DNA of 64,000 bases, taken from contig BTVI01000004.1 of assembly GCA_045862955.1 (NCBI GenBank), positions 32,001 to 96,000 on the forward strand, read 5' to 3'. Source of the stretch: Fimbriimonadales bacterium. GTDB taxonomy: Bacteria > Armatimonadota > Fimbriimonadia > Fimbriimonadales > JABRVX01. Position numbers and translations under genes: made by a program. The notes under the pieces were generated by a model. That model saw only the letters and a list, made by a program, of their open reading frames with translations. It made no database searches and was not told the origin of the DNA. Positions 44,669 to 60,180 of this stretch are shown here, piece by piece; within the stretch, counting starts at the first letter, position 1, and every line of letters starts with the position of its first letter.

Positions 44669-46537
44669 CTAAGGCCCGCCGCTGGCTCTCAACACGATCA
44701 GCAGGGCGGCGATGTCGGTGGGGCGGACACCGGGCACGCGGGATGCTTGGCCGATGCTGCGGGGACGGATGCGGCTCAGTTTGTCTCGGCATTCCAGAGA
44801 GAGTGCCGGGTGTCCGTGATAGTCGAAGTCCTCTGGGATCGGCAGCGCTTCGAGCTCTCGCTGGCGCGCAGCCTGCCTATCCTGAATCTCTAGATACCCT
44901 TCGTACTTGGCCTGCAGCTGCACCTGTTCGGCAACCGCTGGCGACACACCGTTCGTCCTCTTTGCGAGTGCCGCCGCCTTGTGGAAGTCCATCTCCGGGC
45001 GCTTCAGTAGTTCATATACGCTGGTCCGGTCGGACACGGGGGTCGTTCCGAGCATCAGCAGCCTGTCGGAGTCCTTGCTCGTCACATAGGTTTCGCGCAA
45101 AGCGCTGGCCTCGCGCTCAATCGCTTCCCTCTTCTCGCAGAAGATCCGCCATCTGCTGTCATCTACCAGCCCGATCTCTCGGCCGAGGGGTGTTAGCCGC
45201 ATGTCCGCATTGTCATGGCGTAGGCGCAATCGGTACTCGGAGCGCACTGTTAGCATCCGGTACGGGTCCTCCACTCCCTTCGTCACCAGATCATCCACTA
45301 ACGCGCCGATGAAGCTGTCGGTTCGGGAGAATACCACGGCAGGCTCGCCGCGCGAGTACCTTGCTGCGTTGATGCCCGCCACGATTCCCTGTGCCGCCGC
45401 CTCCTCATACCCCGAGGTGCCGTTCACCTGACCGGCGAGGAACAACCCCTCACACAGCTTGCTCATCAGCGTGGGATGGAGCTGCGTGGGATCCGCCATG
45501 TCGTACTCCACTGCGTACCCCGGGCGTAACATGTCGACCTGCTCCAAGCCGGGCAGCGTGCGCAGAAACGCTAACTGTACGTCGGCTGGCAGGCTGGTGG
45601 ACATACCTTGCACGTAGAGCGAGGGCGAGTCCCACTCTTCTTGCTCCAGGAAAACGGGGTGCGATGACTTGTTAGGAAAGCGAACCAGCTTGTCCTCGAT
45701 GCTGGGGCAGTAGCGGGGTCCCACCCCCTCGATCCTACCACCGTACATCGCACTGCGCTCTAGGTTCTGCAGTATCACCTCGTGTGTCGCGGCGTTCGTT
45801 TGCAACGTCCAGCAGGGGAGCATGGAGCGGGCGGGCCGAGGCCGTTCGTGGAGGAAGCTGAATGCCGGACACGAGTCGTCCGCGGGCAGCACGCCCAGGC
45901 GCGAGAAGTCCACGGTACGTGCGTCCACCCGAGGCGTGGTACCTGTTTTGAACCGCCGCATCCGGACGCCCAGTTCGAGTAGAGATTGCGAGACACTCGT
46001 CGAGGGTGGGTCACCGAATCTGGCAGCAGGTCGTGCCTCCTCGCCTATGTGGCACAATCCGTTGAGGAACGTGCCAGTTGTTAGTACGACGGCCCGTGCG
46101 CGGATTTCGAGGTCAGCATCGAACCGCACTCCTACTATCTTGCTATGATGAGTGATTAGGGACGAGACGGTGCCACGTATCAGGTGCAGGTTCGGCTCGC
46201 TCCGCAGAGCCTCGAGCATCTTCAGCGGGTAGAGCCGCTTGCAGGCGTGGGCGCGGAGGGTTCGGACGGAGGGCCCCTTCCCTTCTCCGCAGAATCGAAT
46301 GTGCGTAAGCGCATGGTCCGTCGTGATGCCCATCTGGCCGCCCAGGGCGTCCACCTCGCGCACCAAGTGCCCTTTTGCCGGTCCGCCGATGCTGCAGTTG
46401 CAGGGCATGTGTGCAGTGCGCTCGGGAGAGATGGTCACGCACGCGGTCCGGCAGCCGAGGCGCGCAGACGCCAACGCGGCCTCGCACCCCGCGTGACCAC
46501 TCCCAACGACGATGACATCGAACTCCCCGCTCGGCAT
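44669..46537 (-). CDS. mnmG: tRNA uridine-5-carboxymethylaminomethyl modification enzyme
   Basis: [57 protein letters not shown]. Confidence 0.96.
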
Positions 46538-46753
46538 GCGTCGGATTCTACCGCCGGCCCCCCGAGTCAATGGAGCATCCATAAGGCGATCCGTCTGGTG
46601 TGGAGGTGTCAGCCAGACCCTGAGATTGGCGTGAGGCCGACGGATGCGACGCCGGCGGCCCCATCACACGCCTCGCACGCGGTGTTGCTCGACGAGGTAG
46701 CAGAGCCGTGATAGAACACTCGGGAGAGCCGCACCTCCCTACCCGGTGCGGAT

Positions 46754-47062
46754 GTGTGCGGTCTCTCAGGAAGGAGCGAATGCCATGTTTGGTTGCCCGG
46801 ATGTTCGCAGCTATTCGAGCTGTCGGCTAGCGGCCAGCCTCGATGGATACCGCCCAACTATTCCAGGAATACGGACATTGAGGCTTACTATCACTGGCCC
46901 ATCTGGTGTGAGCCGGTAGTGGCCGATAGCAGCACGGTCTTCCTGAGCACGTTTCGCATTAGCACCGGCGGCAACCAACTGCACGCGGTGACAGAAGAGG
47001 AGATTCCGCCGCAATCAGGCAACCGGTACCCCGTATCCAGGTGGTATCACCCCGATCATCTC
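46754..47062 (+). pseudogene. Possible Rhs-family fragment
   Basis: Ends in RWYHPDHL, resembling the Rhs YHxDHLG motif, then runs into the repeat array. Confidence 0.4.
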
Positions 47063-47115
47063 GTGCAGCGGTGCGTAAGAAGCGTGCATACGGCTCTGAG
47101 TGAAGCTCCGCAGGC

Positions 47116-47447
47116 CCGTCATGCTGAGCTCGTCGAAGCATGACACCCCAGAACCGTCATGCTGAGCCTGTCGAAGCATGACACCCCAGAACCGTCATGC
47201 TGAGCCTGTCGAAGCATGACACCCCGAACCGTCATGCTGAGCTCGTCGAAGCATGACACCCCAGAACCGTCATGCTGAGCCTGTCGAAGCATGACACCCC
47301 AGACCCGTCATGCTGAGCCTGTCGAAGCATGACACCCCAGAACCGTCATGCTGAGCCTGTCGAAGCATGACGCCCCAGACCCGTCATGCTGAGCCTGTCG
47401 AACCATGACACCCCAGACCCGTCATGCTGAGCTCGTCGAAGCATGAC
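47116..47447 (+). repeat. Tandem array of 9 x 38-bp REP units
   Basis: CCGTCATGCTGAGC(CT/TC)GTCGAAGCATGACACCCCAGA(A/C) at 47116, 47154, 47192, 47229, 47267, 47305, 47343, 47381, 47419. Confidence 0.95.
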
Positions 47448-47498
47448 GTCGCACATCGGACGCCAACGGCTTCCGAGGCCACGCTTGCGGCTCCCGTT

Positions 47499-47887
47499 GT
47501 CATGCTTCGACAAGCTCAGCATGACGGGCTTCGCGAAGCCCCGATGGCGCGGGTAGTCACAGCGTCGCTGGATACATCGGCAGGGTCTGACCTCTCACCT
47601 CCGCTGCCGCACCCGCATGCTTCGACAGGCTCAGCATGACGGGTCAAGAAACCTTCTCAGTCCATGACATGACCCTGCCAGCAGGCCACCGCATGCTTCG
47701 ACAGGCTCAGCATGACGGTGGCGCTGGTTGTCGAGGTATGAAGTACATGCTTCGACGGCCTCAACACCACGGGTTTCGCGCACCTCTGATGGCGCGGGTA
47801 GTCACGGCGTCGTTGGATACATCGGCAGGGTCTGACCTCTCACCTCCGCTGCCGCACCCGCATGCTTCGACAGGCTCAGCATGCCGG
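47499..47887 (-). repeat. Five inverted REP copies within a duplicated ~142-bp block
   Basis: Copies near 47499, 47615, 47691, 47746 (degenerate) and 47860; 47501-47642 is repeated at 47746-47887. Confidence 0.9.
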
Positions 47888-47970
47888 GTCTTCGTACTCG
47901 TGCTACTCCTTCGTGCTCCCGTTGTTCGTACTCCGGTTCTTGGTACCCCCTGTTACTCTCGTTTGTCAGT

Positions 47971-48657
47971 CTACTCCCTCCGCGGGTCGAAGAGGTCTGT
48001 CTTGCCATCTCCGCTCCAGACCTGCGAGAAGCGGTACCACTTGGCATGTCCATCCACGAAGGTGTAGTTCGTGCCACCGGTATGCCATGTCATCGCTAGC
48101 TCTTTCTCCGGTTCGATGTAGGTGCCGCTGTCGTTCGGCCAGTACCACCAGGCGGGGTGTACGTGGTCGGAGGTTCCGTTCTCCTTCGTCTCCACGATGT
48201 AGATGGTTCCGGCAGGCATGCGGACGGAGCGCAGGGTGCTATGGCCACAGACGGTCGGCAGCTCGTCGCAGAACTGCAGGGGTAGCATCCAGAAGTTCGT
48301 GCCGTACGAGGTCTTGCGTGTCAACAGGAAGCCTTCGAGCGGCTTGAGCCAGTTGGTACTGGGGTCGCTGGGGCAGCGATACAGAAGGCGCTTGGATTTC
48401 ACGTAAGGCTCCAAGCTTGCTACCCACACCCAAGAGGCATTGGCTCCGGTGTGGCTGTCTAGCGGGAACCGATCGTTCCAGTCGTTGGCATACATCCCGA
48501 CGGCTAGGCCCATCTGACGCATGTTGCTAGAGCAGGTAGTCTTGTTGGCCTGCTGACGCACGCGTGTGAAGACCGGAAACAGAATCGCAGCCAGAATGGC
48601 GATGATAGCAATCACCACCAGGAGCTCGATCAGTGTGAATCCCTTCTTGCCCAACAT
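47971..48657 (-). CDS. Prepilin-type N-terminal cleavage / DUF1559 / H-X9-DG domain protein
   Basis: KKGFTLIELLVVIAIIAILAAILFPVF, CSSNMRQ, CPSD, HTGGTNYTFVDGH. Confidence 0.92.
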   Translation of the reverse strand: MLGKKGFTLIELLVVIAIIAILAAILFPVFTRVRQQANKTTCSSNMRQMGLAVGMYANDWNDRFPLDSHTGANASWVWVASLEPYVKSKRLLYRCPSDPSTNWLKPLEGFLLTRKTSYGTNFWMLPLQFCDELPTVCGHSTLRSVRMPAGTIYIVETKENGTSDHVHPAWWYWPNDSGTYIEPEKELAMTWHTGGTNYTFVDGHAKWYRFSQVWSGDGKTDLFDPRRE

Positions 48658-48744
48658 TATGTCTTCCCCCATGCTGGTCGTATCGGCAAGTCCGCAGGAC
48701 GTCTCGGCCCTGCAGGTTGCCAGGTCCGTGCGCAGAGCCGCAGC

Positions 48745-49332
48745 TTACGCCTTGGCCCGACGCCTCGACGCAAGGAAGCCGACACCCGCCACAAGGGCTA
48801 GCCAAGTTGCGGGCTCGGGTACGAACTGAAGCTCGTACGTGATCAGCGAGTCGTTCAGCGGACGTCCGTCATCGAACGCCACGCCATTCACCAGGCCGAA
48901 TCGAAGGTAGCGGAAGCTACTGTCCGGCGCGGTGAAGGTAACATGGGAATGCCCATTATCGGGCGCAGAGAGGGAGAGGAGTCCCGGGGTCCCAAGCCCG
49001 AAGATCGGGTCCACCTCTCCCTCGATCACTCCGAAGAGACCGGGCGACACGTCCGTCTGGAGGAAGCTGACGTGGCGGAGCATCGGTTCCTCGCCCTCGC
49101 GGTGCAAGACGAAGCCCACGTCGGCAATAAAGACGCCGGGCACGACCTCTTCCCACATGACCTGCAGAACATAGGGCGGATCGACGATCTCTTCCGGCTC
49201 GATCAGCACGAGGTAGTCCTGGTCGTCATAGCCGGGAACGAGGTCTTCGTCATGGTGATGCTGTGCCCAGCCGATGCTACCGAGGGCGATAGCGCTGGCG
49301 AGCGTGCTAGCAAGAAGCTTGTTCACGTTCAT
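48745..49332 (-). CDS. His-motif PEP-CTERM surface protein
   Basis: Signal peptide then QHHHDED; GHSHVTF; VPEPATW..TM..RRR. Confidence 0.88.
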   Translation of the reverse strand: MNVNKLLASTLASAIALGSIGWAQHHHDEDLVPGYDDQDYLVLIEPEEIVDPPYVLQVMWEEVVPGVFIADVGFVLHREGEEPMLRHVSFLQTDVSPGLFGVIEGEVDPIFGLGTPGLLSLSAPDNGHSHVTFTAPDSSFRYLRFGLVNGVAFDDGRPLNDSLITYELQFVPEPATWLALVAGVGFLASRRRAKA

Positions 49333-49354
49333 CTCCCTTTTCTTAGTGTTTGCG

Positions 49355-50305
49355 TTAGAGGCCTTGGCCAGAGCGACCGAAGTTCAGCAGCACTGTGTTC
49401 AGGTCGTCCAGAGCAACCGTCCCATCTCCGTTCACATCTCCCGCATCGTTCGATGTGCCGAAGTTAACCAGCACTCGGTTTAGGTCTCCCAGGCCAATGG
49501 AGTCGTCCCCATCCAAGTCTCCGACGTATGGAAAAGCCCAATCCAGATGGGTGTCCTCGATGAGCGTTACACCGTTGAGGCGCACGGAGAGGTGCTTGCT
49601 CAACTTAGCCACCACATCGAAAGTCCCTGACTGCGTAAAGCCCACCATATATGGGTACACGGCAATCCCCGAGCAGACAGGCAGTTCCTGCGATGCCATG
49701 GTGCTGCCACCGGACCGAAGCTCGAGGCGAAGCGTCAACTTCCCGAGGTCTCCGACGTACTGCGGGGCCGGGCTAACGCTACCGCGAATCTTGTTCGGGG
49801 TCCCCGCTACCATGTAGTAGCGGTAGACGTTAGGCATGTCGTTCAGCGGATTCCCGAGGTAGTCCACTGCGTTTACCACCTTGATGTCCCAAACGTAGAC
49901 GGCCGCAACGTCGGGAGCGGTGAACTTCAGGTGGTGGTGAGGCGTGCCTGCGTACGGCAGGTCGAAGAAGTTGTCGCACCCGCCCGCGCAGAAGATGTTG
50001 CCTACACCAGTCTTGCTGCCGATAAGGTTCGGTGAGATGTATGTCCCTAGGACGCGACACTCTTGGAGCATCGGCTGCGACCATCCGTCGGGCGTGAAGA
50101 AGTCGAGGCCTACGTCCGCAAGGTAAAGGCCCGGTGGGTGCGACATCTGTCGAATCGGCTGCACGGCGGGCTGCATCACCTTGGCGGTGCCGGCCTGATA
50201 GCCGAAGAGAGCGTCGAGATCGTGTTGTGCGGGGACGAGCGCTACTAGGAGCATGAATCCCCCGCAAGCCAATAGCTTGCTCGCTTTGCGTTGCAATGAG
50301 TTCAT
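49355..50305 (-). CDS. His-motif secreted protein with C-terminal dockerin-like Ca-binding repeats
   Basis: Signal peptide, QHDLD, PHHHLKF; GDLDGDDSIGLGDL..NFG and GDVNGDGTVALDDL..NFG. Confidence 0.85.
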   Translation of the reverse strand: MNSLQRKASKLLACGGFMLLVALVPAQHDLDALFGYQAGTAKVMQPAVQPIRQMSHPPGLYLADVGLDFFTPDGWSQPMLQECRVLGTYISPNLIGSKTGVGNIFCAGGCDNFFDLPYAGTPHHHLKFTAPDVAAVYVWDIKVVNAVDYLGNPLNDMPNVYRYYMVAGTPNKIRGSVSPAPQYVGDLGKLTLRLELRSGGSTMASQELPVCSGIAVYPYMVGFTQSGTFDVVAKLSKHLSVRLNGVTLIEDTHLDWAFPYVGDLDGDDSIGLGDLNRVLVNFGTSNDAGDVNGDGTVALDDLNTVLLNFGRSGQGL

Positions 50306-50431
50306 TGGTTTCCTCCCATTTGTCCAAGCAGGAAGTCGCGAAGTCGCTCTCTCTTAGCGATGCTGCTAGAGCATGCATCGGGTGCAGACACTCACGGATC
50401 GCGTGAGCCTAGCGACGGAGAGTTAGTTGGA

Positions 50432-50842
50432 CTAGAGGACGGGCGGGCCGCGAGTGAGGTGGGTAGTTGCGCGCGTCGAGGTGACGCGAGCAGTCGTCAG
50501 CGCCGCAACGGAGGGCGGGGCGTCAGTTAGTTGAAGGGTGACTGGCTCTATCCCCAAGCCCGACGCCGAAACGAGAGCTTTGCAGTGGTCGCACTGCGCG
50601 GCATCGTGGCAGGGAGCCGAATCGGACGCGGTATCGGACAGGACGGTCTGAGCAAGGTCCCCCGCTACCAGGCAGTCCCCAGGAACAGAGAACCCGGCTA
50701 TGAGGTGGAAGACGTGCGACCAGGCGCCAAGCAGCAGAATCGCGGCCAGAACCAAGGTCCCGACCCGCCGCTTTCCGTATGTGAGCAGTGGCTTCAGGCC
50801 ATCCATCTTGGCGTTCGGCTGGCGTCCTTCCGACGACCGCAT
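50432..50842 (-). CDS. DUF2946-like upstream regulatory protein (CxxC + C-terminal RGPP)
   Basis: Hydrophobic N-region, HVFH, CH..CDHC, ends TRGPPVL*. Confidence 0.75.
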   Translation of the reverse strand: MRSSEGRQPNAKMDGLKPLLTYGKRRVGTLVLAAILLLGAWSHVFHLIAGFSVPGDCLVAGDLAQTVLSDTASDSAPCHDAAQCDHCKALVSASGLGIEPVTLQLTDAPPSVAALTTARVTSTRATTHLTRGPPVL

Positions 50843-50848
50843 GACATC

Positions 50849-50877
50849 AGTCTATCATACAGCAGTACCAATGTCAA
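50849..50877 (-). promoter_or_regulatory. sigma70-type promoter of the DUF2946 operon
   Basis: TTGACA-N17-TAGACT with extended TG; ATG 6 nt downstream. Confidence 0.7.
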
Positions 50878-50925
50878 CGTTTTCGGGGATTGTGCCCTTA
50901 GCGCCGTGAACGCTTGGCCGCTAGC

Positions 50926-51135
50926 CTAGGCCGTCGCCGGACTCGGCTGCGCATCGTCCCGCAGCATCTGCTCCAGCTCGTCCGCCTTAGACGTGCAGAA
51001 GTCCAGCATGCGGTCGAGCCGCTTCCCAGGATCCAGCTTGCGTCGGCTGCGAACGATGAAGAACGTTGCGGTGCTTATCCCGACGAGCGCCGCGATGAGG
51101 AAGACGATGTTCGATCGGTTGTTCTCGGATGCCAT
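50926..51135 (-). CDS. Small single-TM hypothetical protein
   Basis: ATG 51135 after GGTGGAG; N-terminal TM. Confidence 0.6.
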   Translation of the reverse strand: MASENNRSNIVFLIAALVGISTATFFIVRSRRKLDPGKRLDRMLDFCTSKADELEQMLRDDAQPSPATA

Positions 51136-51161
51136 CAACTCCACCGAATGTCTGAGCGGCT

Positions 51162-51566
51162 CTAGTCGAGGTCGTACCTCTTGGGTCCCCCGCTAGCGTC
51201 GCCGCCGATGATGCGTTTCACGAACGTGACCAGTTCCATCGGGTTGAACGGCTTCGTCAGGTACATGTCCGCACCGTAGTGGTAGCCCTCGAACACGTCC
51301 TTGTCCTGCGCCTTCGCCGTGAGCATGATCACCGGGAGCTCCTGGAACTCAGGCTCGCGACGCAAGGTCTTCAGGACCTCGAAACCGTCCATATACGGCA
51401 TCATGACGTCCAGCACGACGAGGTCCGGATGGACCGACTTGATCTTCTCCAGACCTTCCTTGCCGTCGTATGCGGTGACGACCTCCCACCCTTGGCGCTC
51501 CAGATTCACCTGGATGAGACGCACAATGTGCCGCTCATCGTCACAAACCAGAATCTTTAGCGCCAT
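51162..51566 (-). CDS. Single-domain response regulator
   Basis: LVCDDE, LDVMMP, MLTA, KPF. Confidence 0.93.
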   Translation of the reverse strand: MALKILVCDDERHIVRLIQVNLERQGWEVVTAYDGKEGLEKIKSVHPDLVVLDVMMPYMDGFEVLKTLRREPEFQELPVIMLTAKAQDKDVFEGYHYGADMYLTKPFNPMELVTFVKRIIGGDASGGPKRYDLD

Positions 51567-51718
51567 ACGGACGACCTCCGAGGGGGATACACGATGCCCG
51601 AATCCTACCCGTAGGGCTCAGACGCTGTCAACGAAGCCCAGGTTCCCGCGAACCGGCTCAGGTCACGCGCCGAACCGCCCGTAGTATTGTCGGGTCTATC
51701 GGGCCCCTCATGAAGGCA

Positions 51719-52801
51719 TCACCAGCACTCGGCGAGCGAGGCCGCGAGCTTGGAGACGGCTTCGGCAGCGTCATGCGCCTGCCTAGTTTCCAGTGGATCG
51801 GCGGCGAGCAAGTCCCGGAGAGGTTCCCAACCAGAACCGAGCAGGCCGCAAACTGCGTAGGACCGCACGCCCGCTCGATTGGCTCGGCCCAACACCTCGC
51901 CGACGATCTTGCCTTGCAGCGTTTGTCCGTCTAGCTTCCCTTCTCCCGTGACGAGCACGTCACACTCGGCGAGCCTCTCGTCGAACCGGAGCCGGTCCAG
52001 CACGAGACGCGACCCCGCCACTAGCTTGGCACCGGCGAATGCAGCCAGCCCGAACGCCAGACCGCCGGCAGCACCGGCCTTCGGCGTATCCGGCGGGAAG
52101 GTGGTCAGCGAAGCCAGACGTGACAGCCCAGCTTCCAGTGCCGCACGTTGCACCTGGGTGCGCACACCTTTCTGTGGCCCGTACACGGCAGTGCAGCCGT
52201 TGGGGCCGAGCAGAGGGTTCTCCACGTCACAGGCACAGAAGATTTCCGGCCAGTCCGCACGCTGCGGCGGCAGTACCCGAGCAAGCCGCTGCAAAGGACC
52301 GCCGCCGGGTTCGAGCTCGGCACCCGAGTCGTTGAGAAGCCGGAATCCGAGCCCCTGTAGGGCCCCTGCTCCGCCGTCGTTGGTTGCCGAACCCCCGAGG
52401 CCGACCAGCGCCCTCGCGGCACCGGCTGCCCTGGCTTGGTGCAGCAGCTCTCCGACGCCACGAGAGGTGGCCCGCATGGGGTCCAGCGCGTCCGGGGTCA
52501 GCAGCGTGATCCCGCAGCAAAGGGCACTCTCGATGATGGCGGTGCCGTCGCCGTGAAGGGCGAAGGGGGCGGGGATCTGTTCACCGAGAGGCCCGGTCAC
52601 ATCCCGCCAGTGCACAGTAGCCCCCGGCGATAGGCACTCGAGGAACCCGTCGCCCCCATCGGCAACCGGCAGAACCGTGATCTCGACCTCGGGCCGAGCG
52701 AGGTGGATGCCAGAAGCCATGGCCTCGGCCGCCTGACGAGCGGAGAGAGTGCCCTTAAACGCGGTGGGGGCTACGAGGATTCGCAAGGCCTGCGGAGGCA
52801 A
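51719..52801 (-). CDS. glxK: Glycerate kinase (GlxK family)
   Basis: AFKGTL, ADGGDG, GGSATNDGG, YGPQKG, GAAGG, TGEG. Confidence 0.93.
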   Translation of the reverse strand: MPPQALRILVAPTAFKGTLSARQAAEAMASGIHLARPEVEITVLPVADGGDGFLECLSPGATVHWRDVTGPLGEQIPAPFALHGDGTAIIESALCCGITLLTPDALDPMRATSRGVGELLHQARAAGAARALVGLGGSATNDGGAGALQGLGFRLLNDSGAELEPGGGPLQRLARVLPPQRADWPEIFCACDVENPLLGPNGCTAVYGPQKGVRTQVQRAALEAGLSRLASLTTFPPDTPKAGAAGGLAFGLAAFAGAKLVAGSRLVLDRLRFDERLAECDVLVTGEGKLDGQTLQGKIVGEVLGRANRAGVRSYAVCGLLGSGWEPLRDLLAADPLETRQAHDAAEAVSKLAASLAECW

Positions 52802-53347: not shown

Positions 53348-54700
53348 CTATTGCAGCTTGCTCGTCTTTTCTACCACATCGGCGAGGAATTCGTCGTTGG
53401 ACTTGGTCCGCGCCAACAACTTGATGAACATCTGGGTCGCCTCGATGGAGTCCTGCTGATTGGCCAAGAGCTTCCGCAGCTGCCACACGCTCTTCAGCTT
53501 TTCGGGCTTGATTAGCAGCTCCTCGTGGCGGGTGGAAGACCGCCGCACGTCGATGGCCGGCCAGATTCGGCGCTCCGCGAGCTCGCGGTCCAGCACCAAC
53601 TCCATGTTGCCCGTTCCCTTGAACTCCTCGAAGATGGCATCGTCCATGCGGCTGCCCGTGTCCACCAAGACCGTGGCGATGACCGTCATGCTGCCGCCCT
53701 CTTCGATGTTGCGTGCCGCACCGAAGAATCGGCGGGGTCGGTACAGTGCGCTGGGGTCGAGGCCGCCCGACAGCGTTCGCCCACTCGCCGTGATCGTCAG
53801 GTTGCTCGCCCGGCTCAGACGGGTGAGGCTGTCCAGTAAGACCACGACATCCCGGCCGGCCTCCACGAGTCGCTTCGCTTGCTCCAGGGTGAGGTCGGCC
53901 ACGCGCATGTGGTTCTCAGCCGGCTCGTCGAAGGTGGACGAGATGACCTGACCGCGAACCGAACGTCGCATGTCGGTGACCTCTTCCGGACGCTCGTCTA
54001 CCAGCAACACCATCAGATACACCTCGGGGTTATTGATGGCGATACTGTTGGCGATGGCCTTCAGAAGCATGGTCTTGCCCGCCTTCGGTGGAGCGACGAT
54101 GAGGCCGCGCTGGCCCTTGCCGATGGGCGAGATCAGGTCGATGATTCGCGCAGACATCTGGTCGGGCCCGATCTCCATCACCATCTGCTCGTTCGGGTAG
54201 ACCGGCGTCAAGTCTTCGAAGTCGCGTCGCGAGCGCTGCGACTCGACGTCCAGGCCGTTGACAGACTCCACCCTTAGCAAGCCGAAATACTTCTCGCCAT
54301 CCTTTGGCGGCCGAACCTGCCCGAACACGGTGTCGCCCGTGCGCAACCCGAATCGCTTGATCTGGGACTGCGACACGTAGACGTCGTTCGGCGAGTTGGC
54401 AAAGTTGCTGCGGCGCAAGAAGCCGAAGCCATCTGGGAGAAGCTCAAGGATGCCCTCGGCGTAGGCAGTGCCGTGCTCGCGGTTTAGCTCGATGAGCAGC
54501 TTGTGAATGAGGTCCGCACGGCCGCGGAAGTCGAGGTCCAGCTCCAGCGACCGAGCCTGCTCCAGCAGCTCTTCGTCGCTCTTCTCGCTTAGGGTTCGGA
54601 AGTTGATGCTGGGCGCATTCTCTAGGTCAGAGGACATCTGCAGATGCGGGTCCTGCATTCGCGGTCGCCGACCGCCCGATCCATCACGTCGTCGATTCAT
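53348..54700 (-). CDS. rho: Transcription termination factor Rho
   Basis: DGFGFLR, GKGQRGLIVAPPKAGKT, DERPEEVT, FEEFKGTGNME. Confidence 0.97.
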   Translation of the reverse strand: MNRRRDGSGGRRPRMQDPHLQMSSDLENAPSINFRTLSEKSDEELLEQARSLELDLDFRGRADLIHKLLIELNREHGTAYAEGILELLPDGFGFLRRSNFANSPNDVYVSQSQIKRFGLRTGDTVFGQVRPPKDGEKYFGLLRVESVNGLDVESQRSRRDFEDLTPVYPNEQMVMEIGPDQMSARIIDLISPIGKGQRGLIVAPPKAGKTMLLKAIANSIAINNPEVYLMVLLVDERPEEVTDMRRSVRGQVISSTFDEPAENHMRVADLTLEQAKRLVEAGRDVVVLLDSLTRLSRASNLTITASGRTLSGGLDPSALYRPRRFFGAARNIEEGGSMTVIATVLVDTGSRMDDAIFEEFKGTGNMELVLDRELAERRIWPAIDVRRSSTRHEELLIKPEKLKSVWQLRKLLANQQDSIEATQMFIKLLARTKSNDEFLADVVEKTSKLQ

Positions 54701-54851
54701 GTTGGGGATAGTTTTTACTCCTGACGTGCCGCCTAGGCGGCATCGAAATAGAGACTGGGCTGTGCCCGCCAAAGCCACCGAAACCCGATCGAGCGGGTGG
54801 GCAAGAACGAATCTGGAGAGCGACAGCCGAAGGAGATTTGCTTCCTTGGCT

Positions 54852-54880: not shown

Positions 54881-55053
54881 CACCCCACTGCAGGTTCGCG
54901 CGGCCCTGGCTACTCCCTAAGAAATTTGGTGTCGTCCAGGATCGGCGGGCTCTCTACGAGTAGCACTGACAGCCCAGTACCTTGGCGAGGCTCGCAGGGA
55001 TTTACGTTGCCCAGACGCCGCGACATTCGTTGCGCGATTCTTTAGCGAGTATC

Positions 55054-55082
55054 TCGACAACGCGGATTACCTGTGATACAAT
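55054..55082 (+). promoter_or_regulatory. Rhs gene promoter
   Basis: TCGACA-N17-TACAAT with extended TG. Confidence 0.6.
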
Positions 55083-55143
55083 GCTCGAGAGGGCCCCCGG
55101 TAAAGGTGCTGGAGCCCGTGCCGGGAGCACCAGGAGGTACGGC

Positions 55144-58100
55144 ATGCGATCCACATTGAGCTCCGTCGTCCACACCGCTCAAGCCCTGCGCTGGGTGGGA
55201 TCCCTGTTCACCCTCGGGCTCTGTATCCTTGCCGCTCGAGCCGGCGAGTGGAAGATTTCAAGAACGGTCGAGATCACCGTCGCTGGCGGAGTTACGGAGA
55301 CAATCACCAACTGCCCCGAACCCAACGAGCCCAGCTATGAGATAGGGGGATCAGAAACCGGCACATTTCCGCAACCTGACCCAGAAGGGCTCAAGTACTT
55401 CGACCAGAGAGACTGGATGGCCGGCTGGCTAGCTGGCGTCTCAGACCCGGCGCTCGAGGGCACAGCGCGCATAACCTATACGGTGACCTACGAACCGGAC
55501 TCCGAGGAGGACGAGCCGCCCTCCCGCATAGTCCTGATCCTTGGCGGCTGGCTCTCCTTGGATGGCATCGGACCGGTAGTCGTCGGCGACTGCTGCCCAG
55601 GGGAAGGCCCAGAGGTAGGCGGCGTACATGCAGAGGCGCTGGCCCGGGTCTTGGGTGAAGCTCGTGATGGACAGGGCTCCGTATCCGCCGGCTGTGACAC
55701 GTCGGAGGAGTTCAGCCACGCACGGCTGCGTGTCCTGGTGCGGGTGGTCTCCATGGTAAAGGACCAGCAGTCGGGCAACTGGAGCGGTAGCACCGAAGTC
55801 GAGGCGGAGATCGGGATAAAAGAGGAGCTTGTCGGCGAAGGAGCCGTGCGAGCATCCGGCTTCTGGTGGTCAACCGCCGAAGTGCACATCTATCCCGCCG
55901 AGCCGGGCTTCCTGTTTCCAGCGTTCTCACTCCCTTCGGGCCCCGGCGGCGGTTGCGAGTGCGGTATCCTCACCATCGAACCGCTCAGCGGGACGGTTAC
56001 CGCCGGCGGCGAGTTCGTCGTCTTCTCGGGGACGATCCCCCTTCGTTCGCAGCGCCAGGACGACGACCGGGAAGCCGGTGACCCTGGCACAATGTACTCT
56101 CTGTTCCCTCCGCCATTCGGGAACATGTCGCACTGGCTATCCATGCGGGTGGAGCCAGGCCGGGCCCTGCTCGACTACTGGACACCGAACACCTTCACCA
56201 ACGATGTAGACCCCGCGGGCCGACTGGGCTTCGCCATCGTGCCCGCACGCACCTCAGAGGCAGGCGTGGGGTCTCCAAGTGCCTCCGCAAGGGCCGGCGT
56301 CCTTGCAAGCACAACGCAGGGCCTAACAAGCCTGACCGACCCCGACATTGGCGACTTCGCAGTTGATGCCACGGGAGCACGCATCCGATTCGGTTCCTAC
56401 AACGGCGCAGAGCGGGTGGAGTCGAACCTCAGCTTCGTGACGGGAGGCTCGACCATCACGAATGCCGGCCCGCCCGGCAGAATCGCTTCTAGAGGCGGGT
56501 GGACCTACACGTTCGGCCTATACACGGATCTCACGGACAACGTCCCGATTCACCTCCTGACGGGCATTACCGACCCGTTCGGCAACGTGGTCTCGATCAA
56601 CCACGAACAGCGGACCGCCACCTTCAGTTGGAGCGGGGAGACTTGGACCTGGGACCTGTACACGAACGAGCCAGGCGGGCCGTCAGGGTACCTACGGATG
56701 CTCGAAAGGCCAGGTGAGCGGTTTACGTTCACGTGGACCGCAGACGGTCGGATGGCCGGCTACGGACGCTACGTTTTCGACCCAGGGCTTCAGGATTGGC
56801 AGCTGGTCGAGCACTATAGCTTCGGCTGGAACTCCGCGCCGGGTGGGCTGTTACGCGCCGAGCATCAGGTTACGGGCGACTGCCAGGCTGGTTGCAACAC
56901 GACGCAGATCGTGGGCCAGGAGTGGCACTCTGCCACACCTTTCGCCAGCCAGAACGAGCCCCACCTGGTTGCCTTCACCGACCGTTTCGGTCACCCCAAG
57001 ATGCAGGCAACGGCGGTGGGATTCGAAGGTGCAACGGTCGCAACGAATCTGACAAGGTACCAGTCCGGGCGCGACTACATGGTGACAGCGACCGACCAGA
57101 CCGGAAAGACATCCACCACCCGTCTCAGAACAGAAACCGATGTCACGGGCATCCCCCGGGTCAGCGAGATACACTCAGAAGGAGCAGTGCTCGTCGGCGC
57201 CGGTACACCTTCTCGTACCGTCGTCACTCTGGACCAGTACGATCGCGCGATAGCGGTGGAATGGGATACGGAAGCTGGCCCGCTCGCCAACGGCTACGAA
57301 CTCACCTACGACGGCTACTCGCAGCGCATCGCGTCGGTTCGCAACCGCGACACACACGACACCTGGACCGTCAGTTGGGCCACCGCGGGTGGTGAGCCTG
57401 TTGTCGGCGCAGTCACCGACCCGACGAGCATCTCGTGGCAGTTCTCCTACGGCCAACGCGGGAATCCCGCCGCCGCGCTCACGACGATGACCTCCCCTTG
57501 GGGCGCACACTGGCTGTTCGACTACAACGGCATCGGACAGCTGAAGCAGACGGCAGCGCCCGGTCGAGCGAGCGACGTTATACAGTACTATGGAGAGGAG
57601 CAACAGGACCCACAGGAGTACCTCTCGCTTCCCAAGAGGTACACCGACCCGACGGGCCGCAGCGTGTATTTCGAGGCGTACGACCTAAGAAAGAACCTCA
57701 CCAAATACTCCTTCGAGGACGACGCCCTCAACAAGATCGGCACGCTCTTCGAATACGACGCATTCGGCAACCTGAGCACGATCACCCACACTGATCAGTC
57801 CCAAGCGTCGTTCACCTACGGCGGTGGGCTGCTCACGAAGGTGACGGACGAGGTAGATCGTAAGGTGTACTTCGACCGCTATCCCGGTGGGGATAACCCT
57901 GGCAAACTCCGCTCCGTCGCCTTCGACCAGAGCCACGACGACTTGTTCGCCTACCTGGCTTACGATGCCGCCGGCAGGCTCACACACGTCTGGGATGGGC
58001 TCCACGCGACCAATCCCTACGAAGACCCCCCGCCAGCCCAAGAGGTGGCCATACTCTCCTATGACTACGGCCAGGCCGGAGAGCTCGTATCCATCACCCA

Positions 58101-60180
58101 TCACAATGCCGATGAGCAGTCCTACTCTACCGAGCGCTTTTACTACAACGCCGAAGGGACCCTGCGCGAGCGCGAGACGACCGACGGGCGAACCATCGGC
58201 TATCTCTACGACCCGAATCGCGAGTGGCTCACGGGGATTGACTACCCCAACGATCCGGACGTCACCTTCACCTACGATGCCGCAGGGAGGCTCGAGTACG
58301 TGGACGACGGCCCGGGGGCGATTGACTACGTGTACGACGCGTACAAGCGCCTGTGGAAGGTCATCCGAACCTTCGACGCCCTGGCGAACAAGCAGTACGT
58401 CATCGAGTACTTCTACAACCCCGACGGCACCGTGCAGAAGACCAAGTCGGGGCTGGTGGCAGGCGGCACCGACAGTCGGCTCGAAACGCACTACACCCTG
58501 GACGATGCGGGCAGAATGACTGCTCTTCAGGTGCTCTTCCCTGCCTCGCCACCGCCCGGAGGACGCTCGATGTCGGGTGGCATCCCCGTCGCAAACACCT
58601 GGACGTGGACCTATGACCGTGCTGGCAGGCTAAAGACGGAGACGGACCCTACCGGCGTCGTGACCACCTACACCTACAAACCGAATGACGACAAGTCGTT
58701 CCTCCAGCGTGTCGAGACGAAGAACGGCGCCGTGACCCTGATGCGCTTCGACTACACGGATTACCCGGACGCGTCGGTGGCGAGTGTTACGGAGACCATC
58801 GGCGGCGGGGCGAACGGGACAGTAAGCTATGAGTATGACCACCGGGCCCAGTTGCAGAGCGACGCGAGGAGCGGCGGCTATGCCTTCTACAGAGGCTACC
58901 AGTATGACCGAGCGGGAAACCTCGTGCGGCTGGACTTCGACGAACAGGGTCGGGTAAGCAGCGCCTGGACGAGCTCGTACAACCAGCTTCAGTCCGTGAG
59001 CGGGGCGCTGAGTTATGGGTTGGCGTACGGAGCGGACGGAGCCGTGGCTGGGCTGGATGACGGGTCGAACCAGTGGACGTACGCCTACGATGACGAGAAC
59101 CGGCTGAAGGAGGTGCGGCGGGGCGCGAACCTGGTGTACACTTGCGTGTACGATGCGTTCGGGCGGCCGGCAGTGGAGACGCTGAACGGCGCGACGAGGT
59201 ATCTAGTCTGGGAAGGGGATGAGCTGTTGTTGGAGGTGGCTCCGGGGACCGGAGCGGTGGTGACCAGGCACGTCTGGGGTGCGGGAGGGTACCAGGGGTA
59301 CTTCCGGAACGAGGGCAGCACCCCTACCCGGTTGGCTCTCCGCGATGGCTTGGGGCACGTGCGCGGACTGATGAACACGTCGAAGGCGATCACCGACCGG
59401 TACCTATTCGACGCGTACGGAAACGACGTCGCGGCGAACCTGCACAACACCACCGAGGGCAACAGCCTCCGCTTTCGCTGGAACGGGTCGTATGGCTACC
59501 GGACACTGTACCTACTATCCGGTCAGCAGAGTACTAACACGGCCACGGTGATGCACGTCGGTGCCCGCCACTACTCCCCCTCCCTCCACCGCTGGCTGCA
59601 GAGGGATCCGATTCGGCTGCGCGGAGGCAGCCCAAACCTATACACATACTGCGCCAGCAACCCTGTAAGCTTCGTGGATCCGTCGGGCCTCTGCCAACTC
59701 ATTCTCTACGTCAACCCTGGCGGCGCCGGCATGGGCAGTCACCTACTGGTTGGTCTTGTGGACAATAGCGGCAATGTAACCTGGGTCAGCTTCTATCCTG
59801 AGGATCCCGCCAGAATGAAGAAGAAGCAATCAGAGGGGCCCGGCCATGTGAGTATCACGCAGACTCCCACGCGAGGAGGGCGCGGAGTCGTCTTCGACAT
59901 CACCGATGATCAGTACGGGAAGCTCCTTGCAGCGGTTATAGCGGAGGTGCAGCAGCGGGTTGAAGGCCGGGGGAAGAAGTATGACCTGTCAGGCTACAAC
60001 TGTGTGGATTGGGCGGACGAGTTGTTCTCCATGGCACTCGGCACAGAGCCTTATCCTGAAAGGCAACCTGGAAGGGTGACCAAGCCGAGTCGATACCTTG
60101 ACTGGTTTCCTGGCAGCAGGCCCATTCCGAAGCTCGGCGAGTGGCGACCAGGTGACGTGTTGCCGGTGCAAATGCGATGA
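55144..60180 (+). CDS. Secreted Rhs/YD-repeat polymorphic toxin with a permuted papain-like tip
   Basis: ATG 55144 after AGGAGG; signal peptide; YDxxGRL repeats; core GARHYSPSLHRWLQRDP..NLYTYC..NP...DPSG; tip with SHLLVG and YDLSGYNCVDWA. Confidence 0.92.
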   Translation: MRSTLSSVVHTAQALRWVGSLFTLGLCILAARAGEWKISRTVEITVAGGVTETITNCPEPNEPSYEIGGSETGTFPQPDPEGLKYFDQRDWMAGWLAGVSDPALEGTARITYTVTYEPDSEEDEPPSRIVLILGGWLSLDGIGPVVVGDCCPGEGPEVGGVHAEALARVLGEARDGQGSVSAGCDTSEEFSHARLRVLVRVVSMVKDQQSGNWSGSTEVEAEIGIKEELVGEGAVRASGFWWSTAEVHIYPAEPGFLFPAFSLPSGPGGGCECGILTIEPLSGTVTAGGEFVVFSGTIPLRSQRQDDDREAGDPGTMYSLFPPPFGNMSHWLSMRVEPGRALLDYWTPNTFTNDVDPAGRLGFAIVPARTSEAGVGSPSASARAGVLASTTQGLTSLTDPDIGDFAVDATGARIRFGSYNGAERVESNLSFVTGGSTITNAGPPGRIASRGGWTYTFGLYTDLTDNVPIHLLTGITDPFGNVVSINHEQRTATFSWSGETWTWDLYTNEPGGPSGYLRMLERPGERFTFTWTADGRMAGYGRYVFDPGLQDWQLVEHYSFGWNSAPGGLLRAEHQVTGDCQAGCNTTQIVGQEWHSATPFASQNEPHLVAFTDRFGHPKMQATAVGFEGATVATNLTRYQSGRDYMVTATDQTGKTSTTRLRTETDVTGIPRVSEIHSEGAVLVGAGTPSRTVVTLDQYDRAIAVEWDTEAGPLANGYELTYDGYSQRIASVRNRDTHDTWTVSWATAGGEPVVGAVTDPTSISWQFSYGQRGNPAAALTTMTSPWGAHWLFDYNGIGQLKQTAAPGRASDVIQYYGEEQQDPQEYLSLPKRYTDPTGRSVYFEAYDLRKNLTKYSFEDDALNKIGTLFEYDAFGNLSTITHTDQSQASFTYGGGLLTKVTDEVDRKVYFDRYPGGDNPGKLRSVAFDQSHDDLFAYLAYDAAGRLTHVWDGLHATNPYEDPPPAQEVAILSYDYGQAGELVSITHHNADEQSYSTERFYYNAEGTLRERETTDGRTIGYLYDPNREWLTGIDYPNDPDVTFTYDAAGRLEYVDDGPGAIDYVYDAYKRLWKVIRTFDALANKQYVIEYFYNPDGTVQKTKSGLVAGGTDSRLETHYTLDDAGRMTALQVLFPASPPPGGRSMSGGIPVANTWTWTYDRAGRLKTETDPTGVVTTYTYKPNDDKSFLQRVETKNGAVTLMRFDYTDYPDASVASVTETIGGGANGTVSYEYDHRAQLQSDARSGGYAFYRGYQYDRAGNLVRLDFDEQGRVSSAWTSSYNQLQSVSGALSYGLAYGADGAVAGLDDGSNQWTYAYDDENRLKEVRRGANLVYTCVYDAFGRPAVETLNGATRYLVWEGDELLLEVAPGTGAVVTRHVWGAGGYQGYFRNEGSTPTRLALRDGLGHVRGLMNTSKAITDRYLFDAYGNDVAANLHNTTEGNSLRFRWNGSYGYRTLYLLSGQQSTNTATVMHVGARHYSPSLHRWLQRDPIRLRGGSPNLYTYCASNPVSFVDPSGLCQLILYVNPGGAGMGSHLLVGLVDNSGNVTWVSFYPEDPARMKKKQSEGPGHVSITQTPTRGGRGVVFDITDDQYGKLLAAVIAEVQQRVEGRGKKYDLSGYNCVDWADELFSMALGTEPYPERQPGRVTKPSRYLDWFPGSRPIPKLGEWRPGDVLPVQMR

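Follow-up and report, generated by a model that had tools for sequence, protein, structure and literature searches.

A candidate arrest leader at the head of a conserved surface-protein cassette in Armatimonadota, with zinc as the probable metal

In the genome of a Fimbriimonadales bacterium (GCA_045862955.1, genome G000), four co-oriented open reading frames (ORFs) encode a leader peptide, two exported proteins and a prepilin. They lie on the minus strand of a 64,000-nt stretch of contig BTVI01000004.1, which is called the window here and to which all positions refer. This cassette is real and phylum-wide in the Armatimonadota, and its first gene very probably is an arrest-type regulator of the genes behind it. 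Our best reading of the whole, which we hold to be true with a probability of roughly 0.55, is that a zinc-responsive arrest leader of the CruR type controls genes for zinc capture at the cell surface. Zinc itself is the probable metal, and the role of the pilin is the weakest part of this reading.

The leader and its conservation

The leader starts with basic residues and a hydrophobic stretch (about residues 29-50) and continues with H43-V-F-H46 and C-H-x5-C84-D-H-C87; another 43 residues lead to RGPP, which is followed by two residues and the stop. A preliminary description of this locus had proposed four co-oriented genes and just this set of leader motifs, i.e. an export segment, HxxH, CH..CDHC and, 43 residues on, RGPP near the stop, and all of them are present. 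A CxxC motif followed after 38-52 residues by R[AGS]PP at the end of an ORF occurs once among the 37,778 six-frame ORFs (≥30 amino acids) of the genome, namely in this leader, and because of this uniqueness the pattern is not attributable to chance. In CruR, metal binding at CxxC relieves arrest at RAPP, upon which Rho terminates transcription, and the two motifs are spaced by 45 residues, a distance conserved within 1-2 residues (PMC9426467). RAPP and RGPP are both strong arrest cores, and CruR stalls at its proline codons in vitro (PMC12992588).

Among 26 tabulated leaders, which had been picked by their R[AGS]PP motif, this motif stands 1-3 residues from the C-terminus in every case. CxxC is likewise present in 26/26 and is preceded by 2-8 histidines; the CxxC-to-RxPP spacing, 43 in the window leader, amounts to 43-49 in 25 of the 26. 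All 14 leaders that were aligned show, as read from the sequence, N-terminal basic residues and then a hydrophobic stretch. Outside the genus, identity to the window leader is only 17-24%.

When searched against 41 genomes, the PEP-CTERM protein encoded by the third gene yielded strong orthologues in the sole genome of the same genus and in 11 of the 12 genomes of a sister family (f4). In all 12 of these relatives the tandem of genes for exported proteins is preceded by a short ORF with a transmembrane segment, a His cluster, CxxC and R[AG]PP, and in 10 of them it is followed by an orthologous pilin gene, the contigs of the other two ending first. A profile of the domain shared by the exported proteins matched 21 of 401 genomes, and searches of these 401 with the domain and pilin-head profiles extend the cassette to other classes. 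Altogether, an R[AGS]PP leader lies upstream of the cargo in 27 of the 31 genomes with readable upstream DNA, and these belong to six families (G000, G001, eleven genomes of f4, six of f18, G180, G306, G359, G256, G416, G173, G334 and G348). The count of 31 leaves out G376 and G415, in which the upstream DNA is cut off, and G360, which has the pilin alone; the cassettes of G023 and G306 are split over contigs. Nothing stated here depends on the unpublished genome G036. The expected synteny across the Armatimonadota is thus borne out, and so is the placement of a CruR/CutF-type leader at the head of a conserved surface-protein operon.

The gene order behind the leader is shuffled, such that the first cargo gene encodes a dockerin-like protein, ZepA or the pilin. 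G180 and G306 possess extra genes for HxH domains at which no leader was seen. Five f18 cassettes have, after the pilin, another gene for a dockerin-like exported protein that belongs to no known family (L068:5032-6186 and orthologues).

Surface proteins, pilin and metal

The search with the PEP-CTERM protein revealed that the second and third genes share one domain. The two His-motif proteins announced in the preliminary description are therefore present in a more precise sense, as one duplicated domain on two different anchors. Twenty-five copies of the domain align over about 145 residues, and the sole invariant residues of a metal-binding type are three His and one Asp, with His-x-x-Asp being N-terminal and His-x-His lying on a late strand (25/25 domains). 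AlphaFold predicts a confident all-beta domain, with pLDDT mostly above 90 over residues 31-170. Foldseek retrieved generic beta-sandwiches with TM scores of 0.40 or less among the matches listed. The closest named relatives of the cargo come from Fimbriimonadales/Armatimonadota, and a scan of 1.84 billion representatives gave 73 matches, many of them through the anchor alone. From these more distant homologues, 32 with the full domain were selected and considered with the best five families per protein: eight match TIGR03769 or choice-of-anchor M (best E 2.5e-5) and five the C-terminal part of the ZepA model NF040463 (best E 1.9e-6), in both cases below cut-off. TIGR03769 and choice-of-anchor M gave no match for the window's own domains.

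Display at the surface is predicted from the anchors. The third gene product exceeds the PEP-CTERM cut-off (TIGR02595, 24.6 bits, cut-off 16) and the genome encodes an exosortase (PF09721, 169.5 bits), in agreement with the earlier proposal of PEP-CTERM display. The dockerin-like tail of the second gene product is visible in two Asp-rich repeats, but dockerin models remain below cut-off in the window protein (no PF00404 match; NF041540 11.2, cut-off 29); PF00404 is passed by cargo genes of two relatives.

That zinc and not copper is the most likely metal follows from a true ZepA inside the cassette in nine relatives and from the cargo motif of three His plus one Asp. ZepA (NF040463) scores above cut-off in 11 of the 401 genomes, and nine of the 11 genes are situated inside the cassette in members of three families (G079, G091, G115, G145, G193, G202, G180, G256 and G376); of the remaining two, one lies on a 1.3-kb contig and one, in G008, stands alone without a leader. 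In six f18 genomes ZepA is the first gene after the leader and precedes genes orthologous to the second and third ones of the window cassette; five of these genomes have the pilin next, and in the sixth the contig ends first. ZepA binds zinc and mediates zinc uptake; zinc starvation induces it and Zur represses it, and its homologues, assayed in E. coli, showed specificity for zinc as against Cu, Ni, Co and Cd (PMC10957091). ZnuE, ZnuF and ZnuG of Corynebacterium are zinc-regulated, zinc-binding surface proteins with an HxD/HxH motif, and their function requires the His residues, without these being proven to form the zinc site (PMC12445094).

The window genome (97.6% complete) gave no FUR, ZnuA, ZIP or TonB-receptor match and contains a gene for a DtxR/MntR-type regulator. 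The FUR search also remained without a match in G001, G002, G014, G314 and G359; neither of the two other searched genomes of the family gave one. Among 56 relatives searched, 48 keep a FUR gene, including all six ZepA-first genomes, and the idea of the leader as a phylum-wide substitute for Zur was rejected on these grounds. The stretch between the cassette leader and a second RAPP leader in G348 (L081:8913-10407, G348:C128) holds a gene of the FUR family and a perfect 7-1-7 palindrome; this cassette-side gene scores below every Fur, Zur and PerR cut-off. The palindrome was encountered at one locus among 42 records scanned and is absent from the window promoter. It does not name the metal, because such a pattern serves as a Fur box as well as a Zur-type box. 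The two RAPP-type leaders of G348 are divergent, the second heading genes for a LolD-like ATPase, an FtsX-type permease and a peptidyl-prolyl isomerase.

The fourth gene had been described as an H-X9-DG prepilin, and the prepilin, DUF1559 and H-X9-DG models all agree (TIGR02532, 36.7 at a cut-off of 16.3; PF07596, 32.8 at 23.3; TIGR04294, 24.3 at 19). It is one of 41 prepilin-like ORFs of the genome and the sole one with a leader; the profile of its subfamily, which includes the cassette pilin itself, gives 302 bits versus 72 for the next paralogue. The extra His motifs claimed for it are real in that positions D-[ST]-H and [DE]-H-x-H (D-S-H and D-H-x-H in the earlier wording) are kept across classes within this one subfamily, whereas the number of histidines is ordinary: it has six, and most of the 40 paralogues have 5-7. 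Similarly, the functional handle that the locus was thought to offer on the H-X9-DG family shrinks from the whole family to one discrete subfamily. Structure prediction for the pilin resulted in a pLDDT of 44 and no usable fold.

Locus anatomy and expression

The features of the locus are compiled in Table 1.

Table 1. Features of the cassette in the 64,000-nt window.
Feature	Position	Strand	Remarks
Sigma-70-type promoter-like site, TTGACA-17-TAGACT, extended TG	50849..50877	-	10 of 12 consensus positions
Leader ORF, 136 aa, DUF2946/CruR-like putative arrest peptide	50432..50842	-	conserved start may be Met13
CxxC (C84-D-H-C87), putative metal-sensing motif	50582..50593	-	
RGPP from R131, putative ribosome-arrest motif	50441..50452	-	two codons 5' of stop
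Intergenic region, 126 nt, putative switch region	50306..50431	-	ends in GGGAGG ribosome-binding site of next gene
Second gene, exported protein, 316 aa	49355..50305	-	signal peptide, HxxD/HxH beta-sandwich domain, C-terminal module with dockerin-like double repeat end
HxxD/HxH domain of second gene	50227-49805	-	H28, D31, H123, H125
Third gene, exported paralogue, 195 aa	48745..49332	-	signal peptide, His-rich N-terminus, HxxD/HxH domain, PEP-CTERM anchor
HxxD/HxH domain of third gene	49263-48823	-	H27, D30, H128, H130
Fourth gene, DUF1559 / H-X9-DG prepilin, 233 aa	47971..48672	-	likely start Met6 at 48657

One strong promoter had been postulated for all four genes. The site itself fits, with its two boxes and extended TG, but a scan found two such sites in 6 kb against 1.1 +/- 0.9 in shuffled sequences, so that the promoter-like site alone is not beyond chance. 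It gains support because a -10 box stands at the matching position in relatives: in all 11 genomes of f4 (L022-L033) an extended -10 box is found 7-9 nt before the leader ATG. In the window the first ATG of the leader comes 6 nt after the -10 box. Judged from these distances, the window transcript is probably leaderless or nearly so and the leader mRNAs of f4 appear nearly leaderless; a longer 5' leader occurs in the genome from the same genus and in other classes. Near-exact contig pieces from RNA runs cover the leader in four of seven runs and the cargo genes in four of seven, both in one run, and two pieces end at 50832, 10 nt from the predicted leader start; seen as contigs, such pieces cannot rank genes and may include DNA carry-over.

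No intrinsic terminator was detected within window positions 46500-52500. The gap between leader and next gene measures 79-280 nt across 23 loci, and in the window its 5' end is C- and pyrimidine-rich. Over the first 70 intergenic nt, C/(C+G) is 0.587 for the 23 loci versus 0.494 +/- 0.075 for 220 control gaps of the window genome. The long C-rich gap suits Rho, and a rho gene is present in the window genome. Translational masking is suited by the predicted pairing of the ribosome-binding site, which at 17 of 21 loci involves the tail of the leader or the first 30 intergenic bases; the mean tail pairing of 0.46 versus 0.25 in synonymous shuffles with uniform codon choice is suggestive, the kin compared not being independent. 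Rho termination and masking of the ribosome-binding site may both act as outputs. A single conserved anti-Shine-Dalgarno hairpin was considered and rejected, as accessibility upon masking of the stalled footprint went up at 16 of 23 loci and down at six, among them the window.

In the neighbourhood, a REP-like palindromic array (38-nt tandem period with inverted copies) occupies window positions 47070-47890, flanked on one side by the pilin gene's end and on the other by the convergent region that lies upstream of an MnmG-like gene; its core occurs in 787 copies on 71 of the 94 contigs of the genome. The rho gene (53348-54778, minus strand) lies 2.5 kb upstream of the operon and is followed by a bifunctional-nuclease-domain gene and a glycerate kinase gene, a neighbourhood that is not kept at other cassettes. 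A 1732-aa RHS-repeat protein encoded at 54982-60180 (plus strand) has a C-terminal tip without annotation and is possibly a polymorphic interbacterial toxin.

Proposed mechanism, alternatives and known systems

In the mechanism that we propose, the leader would enter the Sec channel during its synthesis, and the His cluster and CxxC would emerge as the ribosome reaches RGPP, 43 residues further on. When zinc is scarce, the ribosome would stay arrested at RGPP, covering the C-rich leader end and the start of the intergenic region; it would thereby keep Rho off and/or free the next ribosome-binding site, and the three downstream genes would be on. Binding of zinc would fold the sensor, pull the chain and release the arrest, switching the cargo off. 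Arrest at low zinc and release by zinc are inferred from the analogy with CruR and from the demonstrated arrest at RAPP/RGPP. The two cargo proteins would bind zinc via three His and one Asp, displayed by the PEP-CTERM anchor and the dockerin-like tail, respectively, and the pilin might be a co-regulated minor or tip subunit that binds metal or carries it inward. This last step is the weakest and the entry route is unexplained, because no gene for ZnuA, ZIP or a TonB receptor was found in the genome.

A number of findings weigh against this reading. The likeness of the leader to DUF2946 stands as regards CxxC, export segment, RxPP and CruR-like spacing, but its score with PF11162 (14.9 bits) does not reach the gathering cut-off of 23.7; the model is matched by 8 of 14 leader homologues, with a best E of 0.0035. 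The cassette of G314 has no leader. In G074 the leader (L085:9214-9594) has CxxC, and a stop stands four codons before an intact, in-frame RAPP; the leader of G334, from the same genus, is unbroken, and either arrest was lost naturally in G074 or the assembly is in error there. The leaders of G350 and G407 (L130:8560-8930 and L131:4390-4835) are Cys-rich and exported and end in PPP, not RAPP; they head related cargo, an HGD...HxH dockerin protein and a pilin, and thus present a CutF-like tail on the same cassette. In the window itself, pairing between ribosome-binding site and leader tail scores 0.29 with a control of 0.32, i.e. none is predicted, and masking the stalled footprint leaves the ribosome-binding site unfreed (0.18 to 0.16). 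With regard to the metal, the six ZepA-first loci come from one genus and are not independent, and the window genome has no NF040463 match and hence no ZepA. The cargo domains of the window match no family by sequence (no Pfam, NCBIfam or PDB match, the sequence search of solved structures giving 0 matches). Comparison of the window domain with ZepA by hhalign reached a probability of 6.6% (E 0.0055, 77 columns), and the zinc triad H-X2-9-H-F/Y-H present in the ZepA proteins of relatives is replaced by HxxD plus HxH in the window proteins. Finally, no gene for a zinc transporter or COG0523 protein was recognised beside any cassette, the neighbours having been read by eye and not all scanned.

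The same switch could work with copper, a CruR-like leader then governing copper capture at the surface. We consider this unlikely, even though both studied DUF2946 leaders sense copper via CxxC and the structure comparisons lean the same way. The closest solved folds of the cargo domain are cupredoxin and multicopper-oxidase domains with Z 6.5-7.0, none reaching 8 (best match Z 7.0, rmsd 3.9 over 116 residues); the nearest ESM Atlas cluster of both domains bears a metallo-mystery/MbnP-type name (0.77 and 0.84, below the lead level of 0.9), and the MbnP-type family is itself enriched behind RAPP leaders. These two results speak weakly against zinc and appear to lie at background level, Z values below 8 being common among unrelated beta-sandwiches. 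Furthermore, the 25 cargo domains have no invariant Met or Cys, the one characterised gene that was found there is that of the zinc-specific ZepA, and among the cassettes read none showed a recognisable gene for PCuAC, SCO, CopC or an oxidase. Some leaders of the CruR/CutF type may sense other metals, with nickel and cobalt named (PMC9973294), and a DUF2946 gene of Caulobacter heads a Zur-activated zinc efflux operon (PMC4176598). That the pilin is a structural or adhesive passenger of a metal module formed by the leader and the His-motif proteins appears quite unlikely. Its ordinary His content and poor fold prediction would agree with such a role, as would a close pilin homologue in G360 that stands without leader or cargo, but the single-copy subfamily travels with the cassette through changes of gene order, often directly after the leader, and retains its extra His positions across classes; across bacteria, DUF1559 genes show an enrichment of RAPP leaders in front of them.

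Control of the opposite sign, in which excess metal would stall the leader and induce sequestering surface proteins, is how CutF behaves; here it is improbable. Without an obvious entry for bound metal, given that no TonB receptor, ZnuA or ZIP was found, sequestration would make sense, and ZnuF and ZnuG can hinder zinc import in some backgrounds (PMC12445094). Against this stand the regulation of ZepA, which is induced when zinc is short and Zur-repressed (PMC10957091), and the long C-rich gap, which is nearer to that of CruR (162 nt) than to the short stem-loop type. Least probable of all is a leader that senses export or disulfide formation as a force sensor like SecM or Apd, with metal being incidental. 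RAPP/RGPP peptides also head sec and thioredoxin/Dsb genes (PMC12992588), the entire cargo is exported, and one His-motif paralogue and the pilin carry conserved Cys pairs. Yet the leaders retain their histidines before CxxC and a fixed distance from CxxC to the arrest motif, and a leader is found at only 1 of 41 prepilin genes in a genome that, by pattern counts, encodes 45 PEP-CTERM-like and 41 dockerin-like exported proteins.

Beyond the zinc-responsive CruR-type leader favoured here, it is conceivable, if rather doubtful, that zinc scavenging in Armatimonadota has ancestrally been controlled by a zinc-sensing arrest leader, in the role that Zur plays for ZepA elsewhere, and that this leader governs pilus-based uptake: HxxD/HxH proteins and ZepA at the surface would gather zinc, and a dedicated H-X9-DG pilin would bring it into cells without ZnuA, ZIP and TonB receptors. 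Were this true, it would add a zinc-sensing member to the arrest peptides for the first time and give a DUF1559 pilin its first substrate. Both metal-sensing arrest leaders studied by experiment respond to copper, and a leader wired to ZepA offers a concrete test of zinc. A likely job can now be named for a surface domain that had no name, and one of some 40 look-alike DUF1559/H-X9-DG pilins per genome is singled out as candidate metal-handling subunit, which makes a family of long-unknown function testable. As genes for FUR, ZnuA, ZIP and TonB receptors are apparently missing from the genome, one may ask by what means these bacteria sense zinc and take it up at all.

In the literature we found neither this cassette described nor ZepA placed behind a leader nor a RAPP leader that senses zinc, though supplementary tables may list such loci. 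In the supplement texts of PMC9426467 and PMC9973294, apart from the large neighbour table of the latter, neither Armatimonadota nor PEP-CTERM appears in any row, and the main text of PMC10957091 mentions neither Armatimonadota nor pilins nor DUF2946. The link between leader and DUF1559 is already known as an enriched class and to this extent detracts from novelty: the source data of Fig. 4B in PMC12992588, an enrichment table of 2025, hold 112 RAPP versus 68 AAPP small ORFs before DUF1559 genes (6.5-fold), a row that does not figure in its main text. As in the window, these RAPP leaders, often His-rich and with CxxC, directly precede the DUF1559 gene; the difference is that no metal, cargo or subfamily is assigned there (PMC12992588).

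The window leader shares with CruR (Bp2923) of Bordetella pertussis its place as first operon gene, the export segment, a RAPP-type motif at the C-terminus with CxxC some 45 residues ahead of it, the long gap and the presence of Rho. It differs by staying below the Pfam cut-off, by RGPP, by an extra His cluster and by its occurrence in a different phylum. The cargo of CruR is a TonB-dependent copper importer (PMC12914433), while here it comprises His-motif proteins, a pilin and, in relatives, ZepA, and the metal is probably zinc. With CutF of Rhodobacter capsulatus the leader has in common export, a Cys motif and a Pro-rich stall site (putative in the window leader), and control may in both cases act on the next ribosome-binding site; in CutF, however, the motif is CxxxC and the prolines form a run, copper causes the stall, and the induced product is a detoxifying oxidase, whereas uptake-type cargo and the opposite sign are inferred here (PMC9973294; bioRxiv 10.1101/2025.02.05.636593).

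On the side of the cargo, a His/Asp pair and HxH seem to bracket a beta domain in our proteins much as they do in ZnuE, ZnuF, ZnuG and CmrA of Corynebacterium and in TIGR03769/choice-of-anchor M proteins, with three His plus Asp and varied anchors. The Corynebacterium motif is HxD, that of most members here HxxD, and the distance between the motifs is about 150 residues there versus about 100 here (PMC12445094). The connection of our domains to TIGR03769/choice-of-anchor M consists of transitive profile matches below threshold. ZnuE, ZnuF and ZnuG presumably carry TIGR03769 domains. The text of PMC12445094 does not name this model. ZepA (All3515) resembles the window proteins in its signal peptide, His/acidic N-terminus, PEP-CTERM anchor and perhaps its beta-sandwich. 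The window proteins differ from it in lacking a match to the ZepA model, the H-X2-9-H-F/Y-H triad and the inserted second domain, and while ZepA is normally controlled by Zur, regulation in the cassette apparently lies with the leader.

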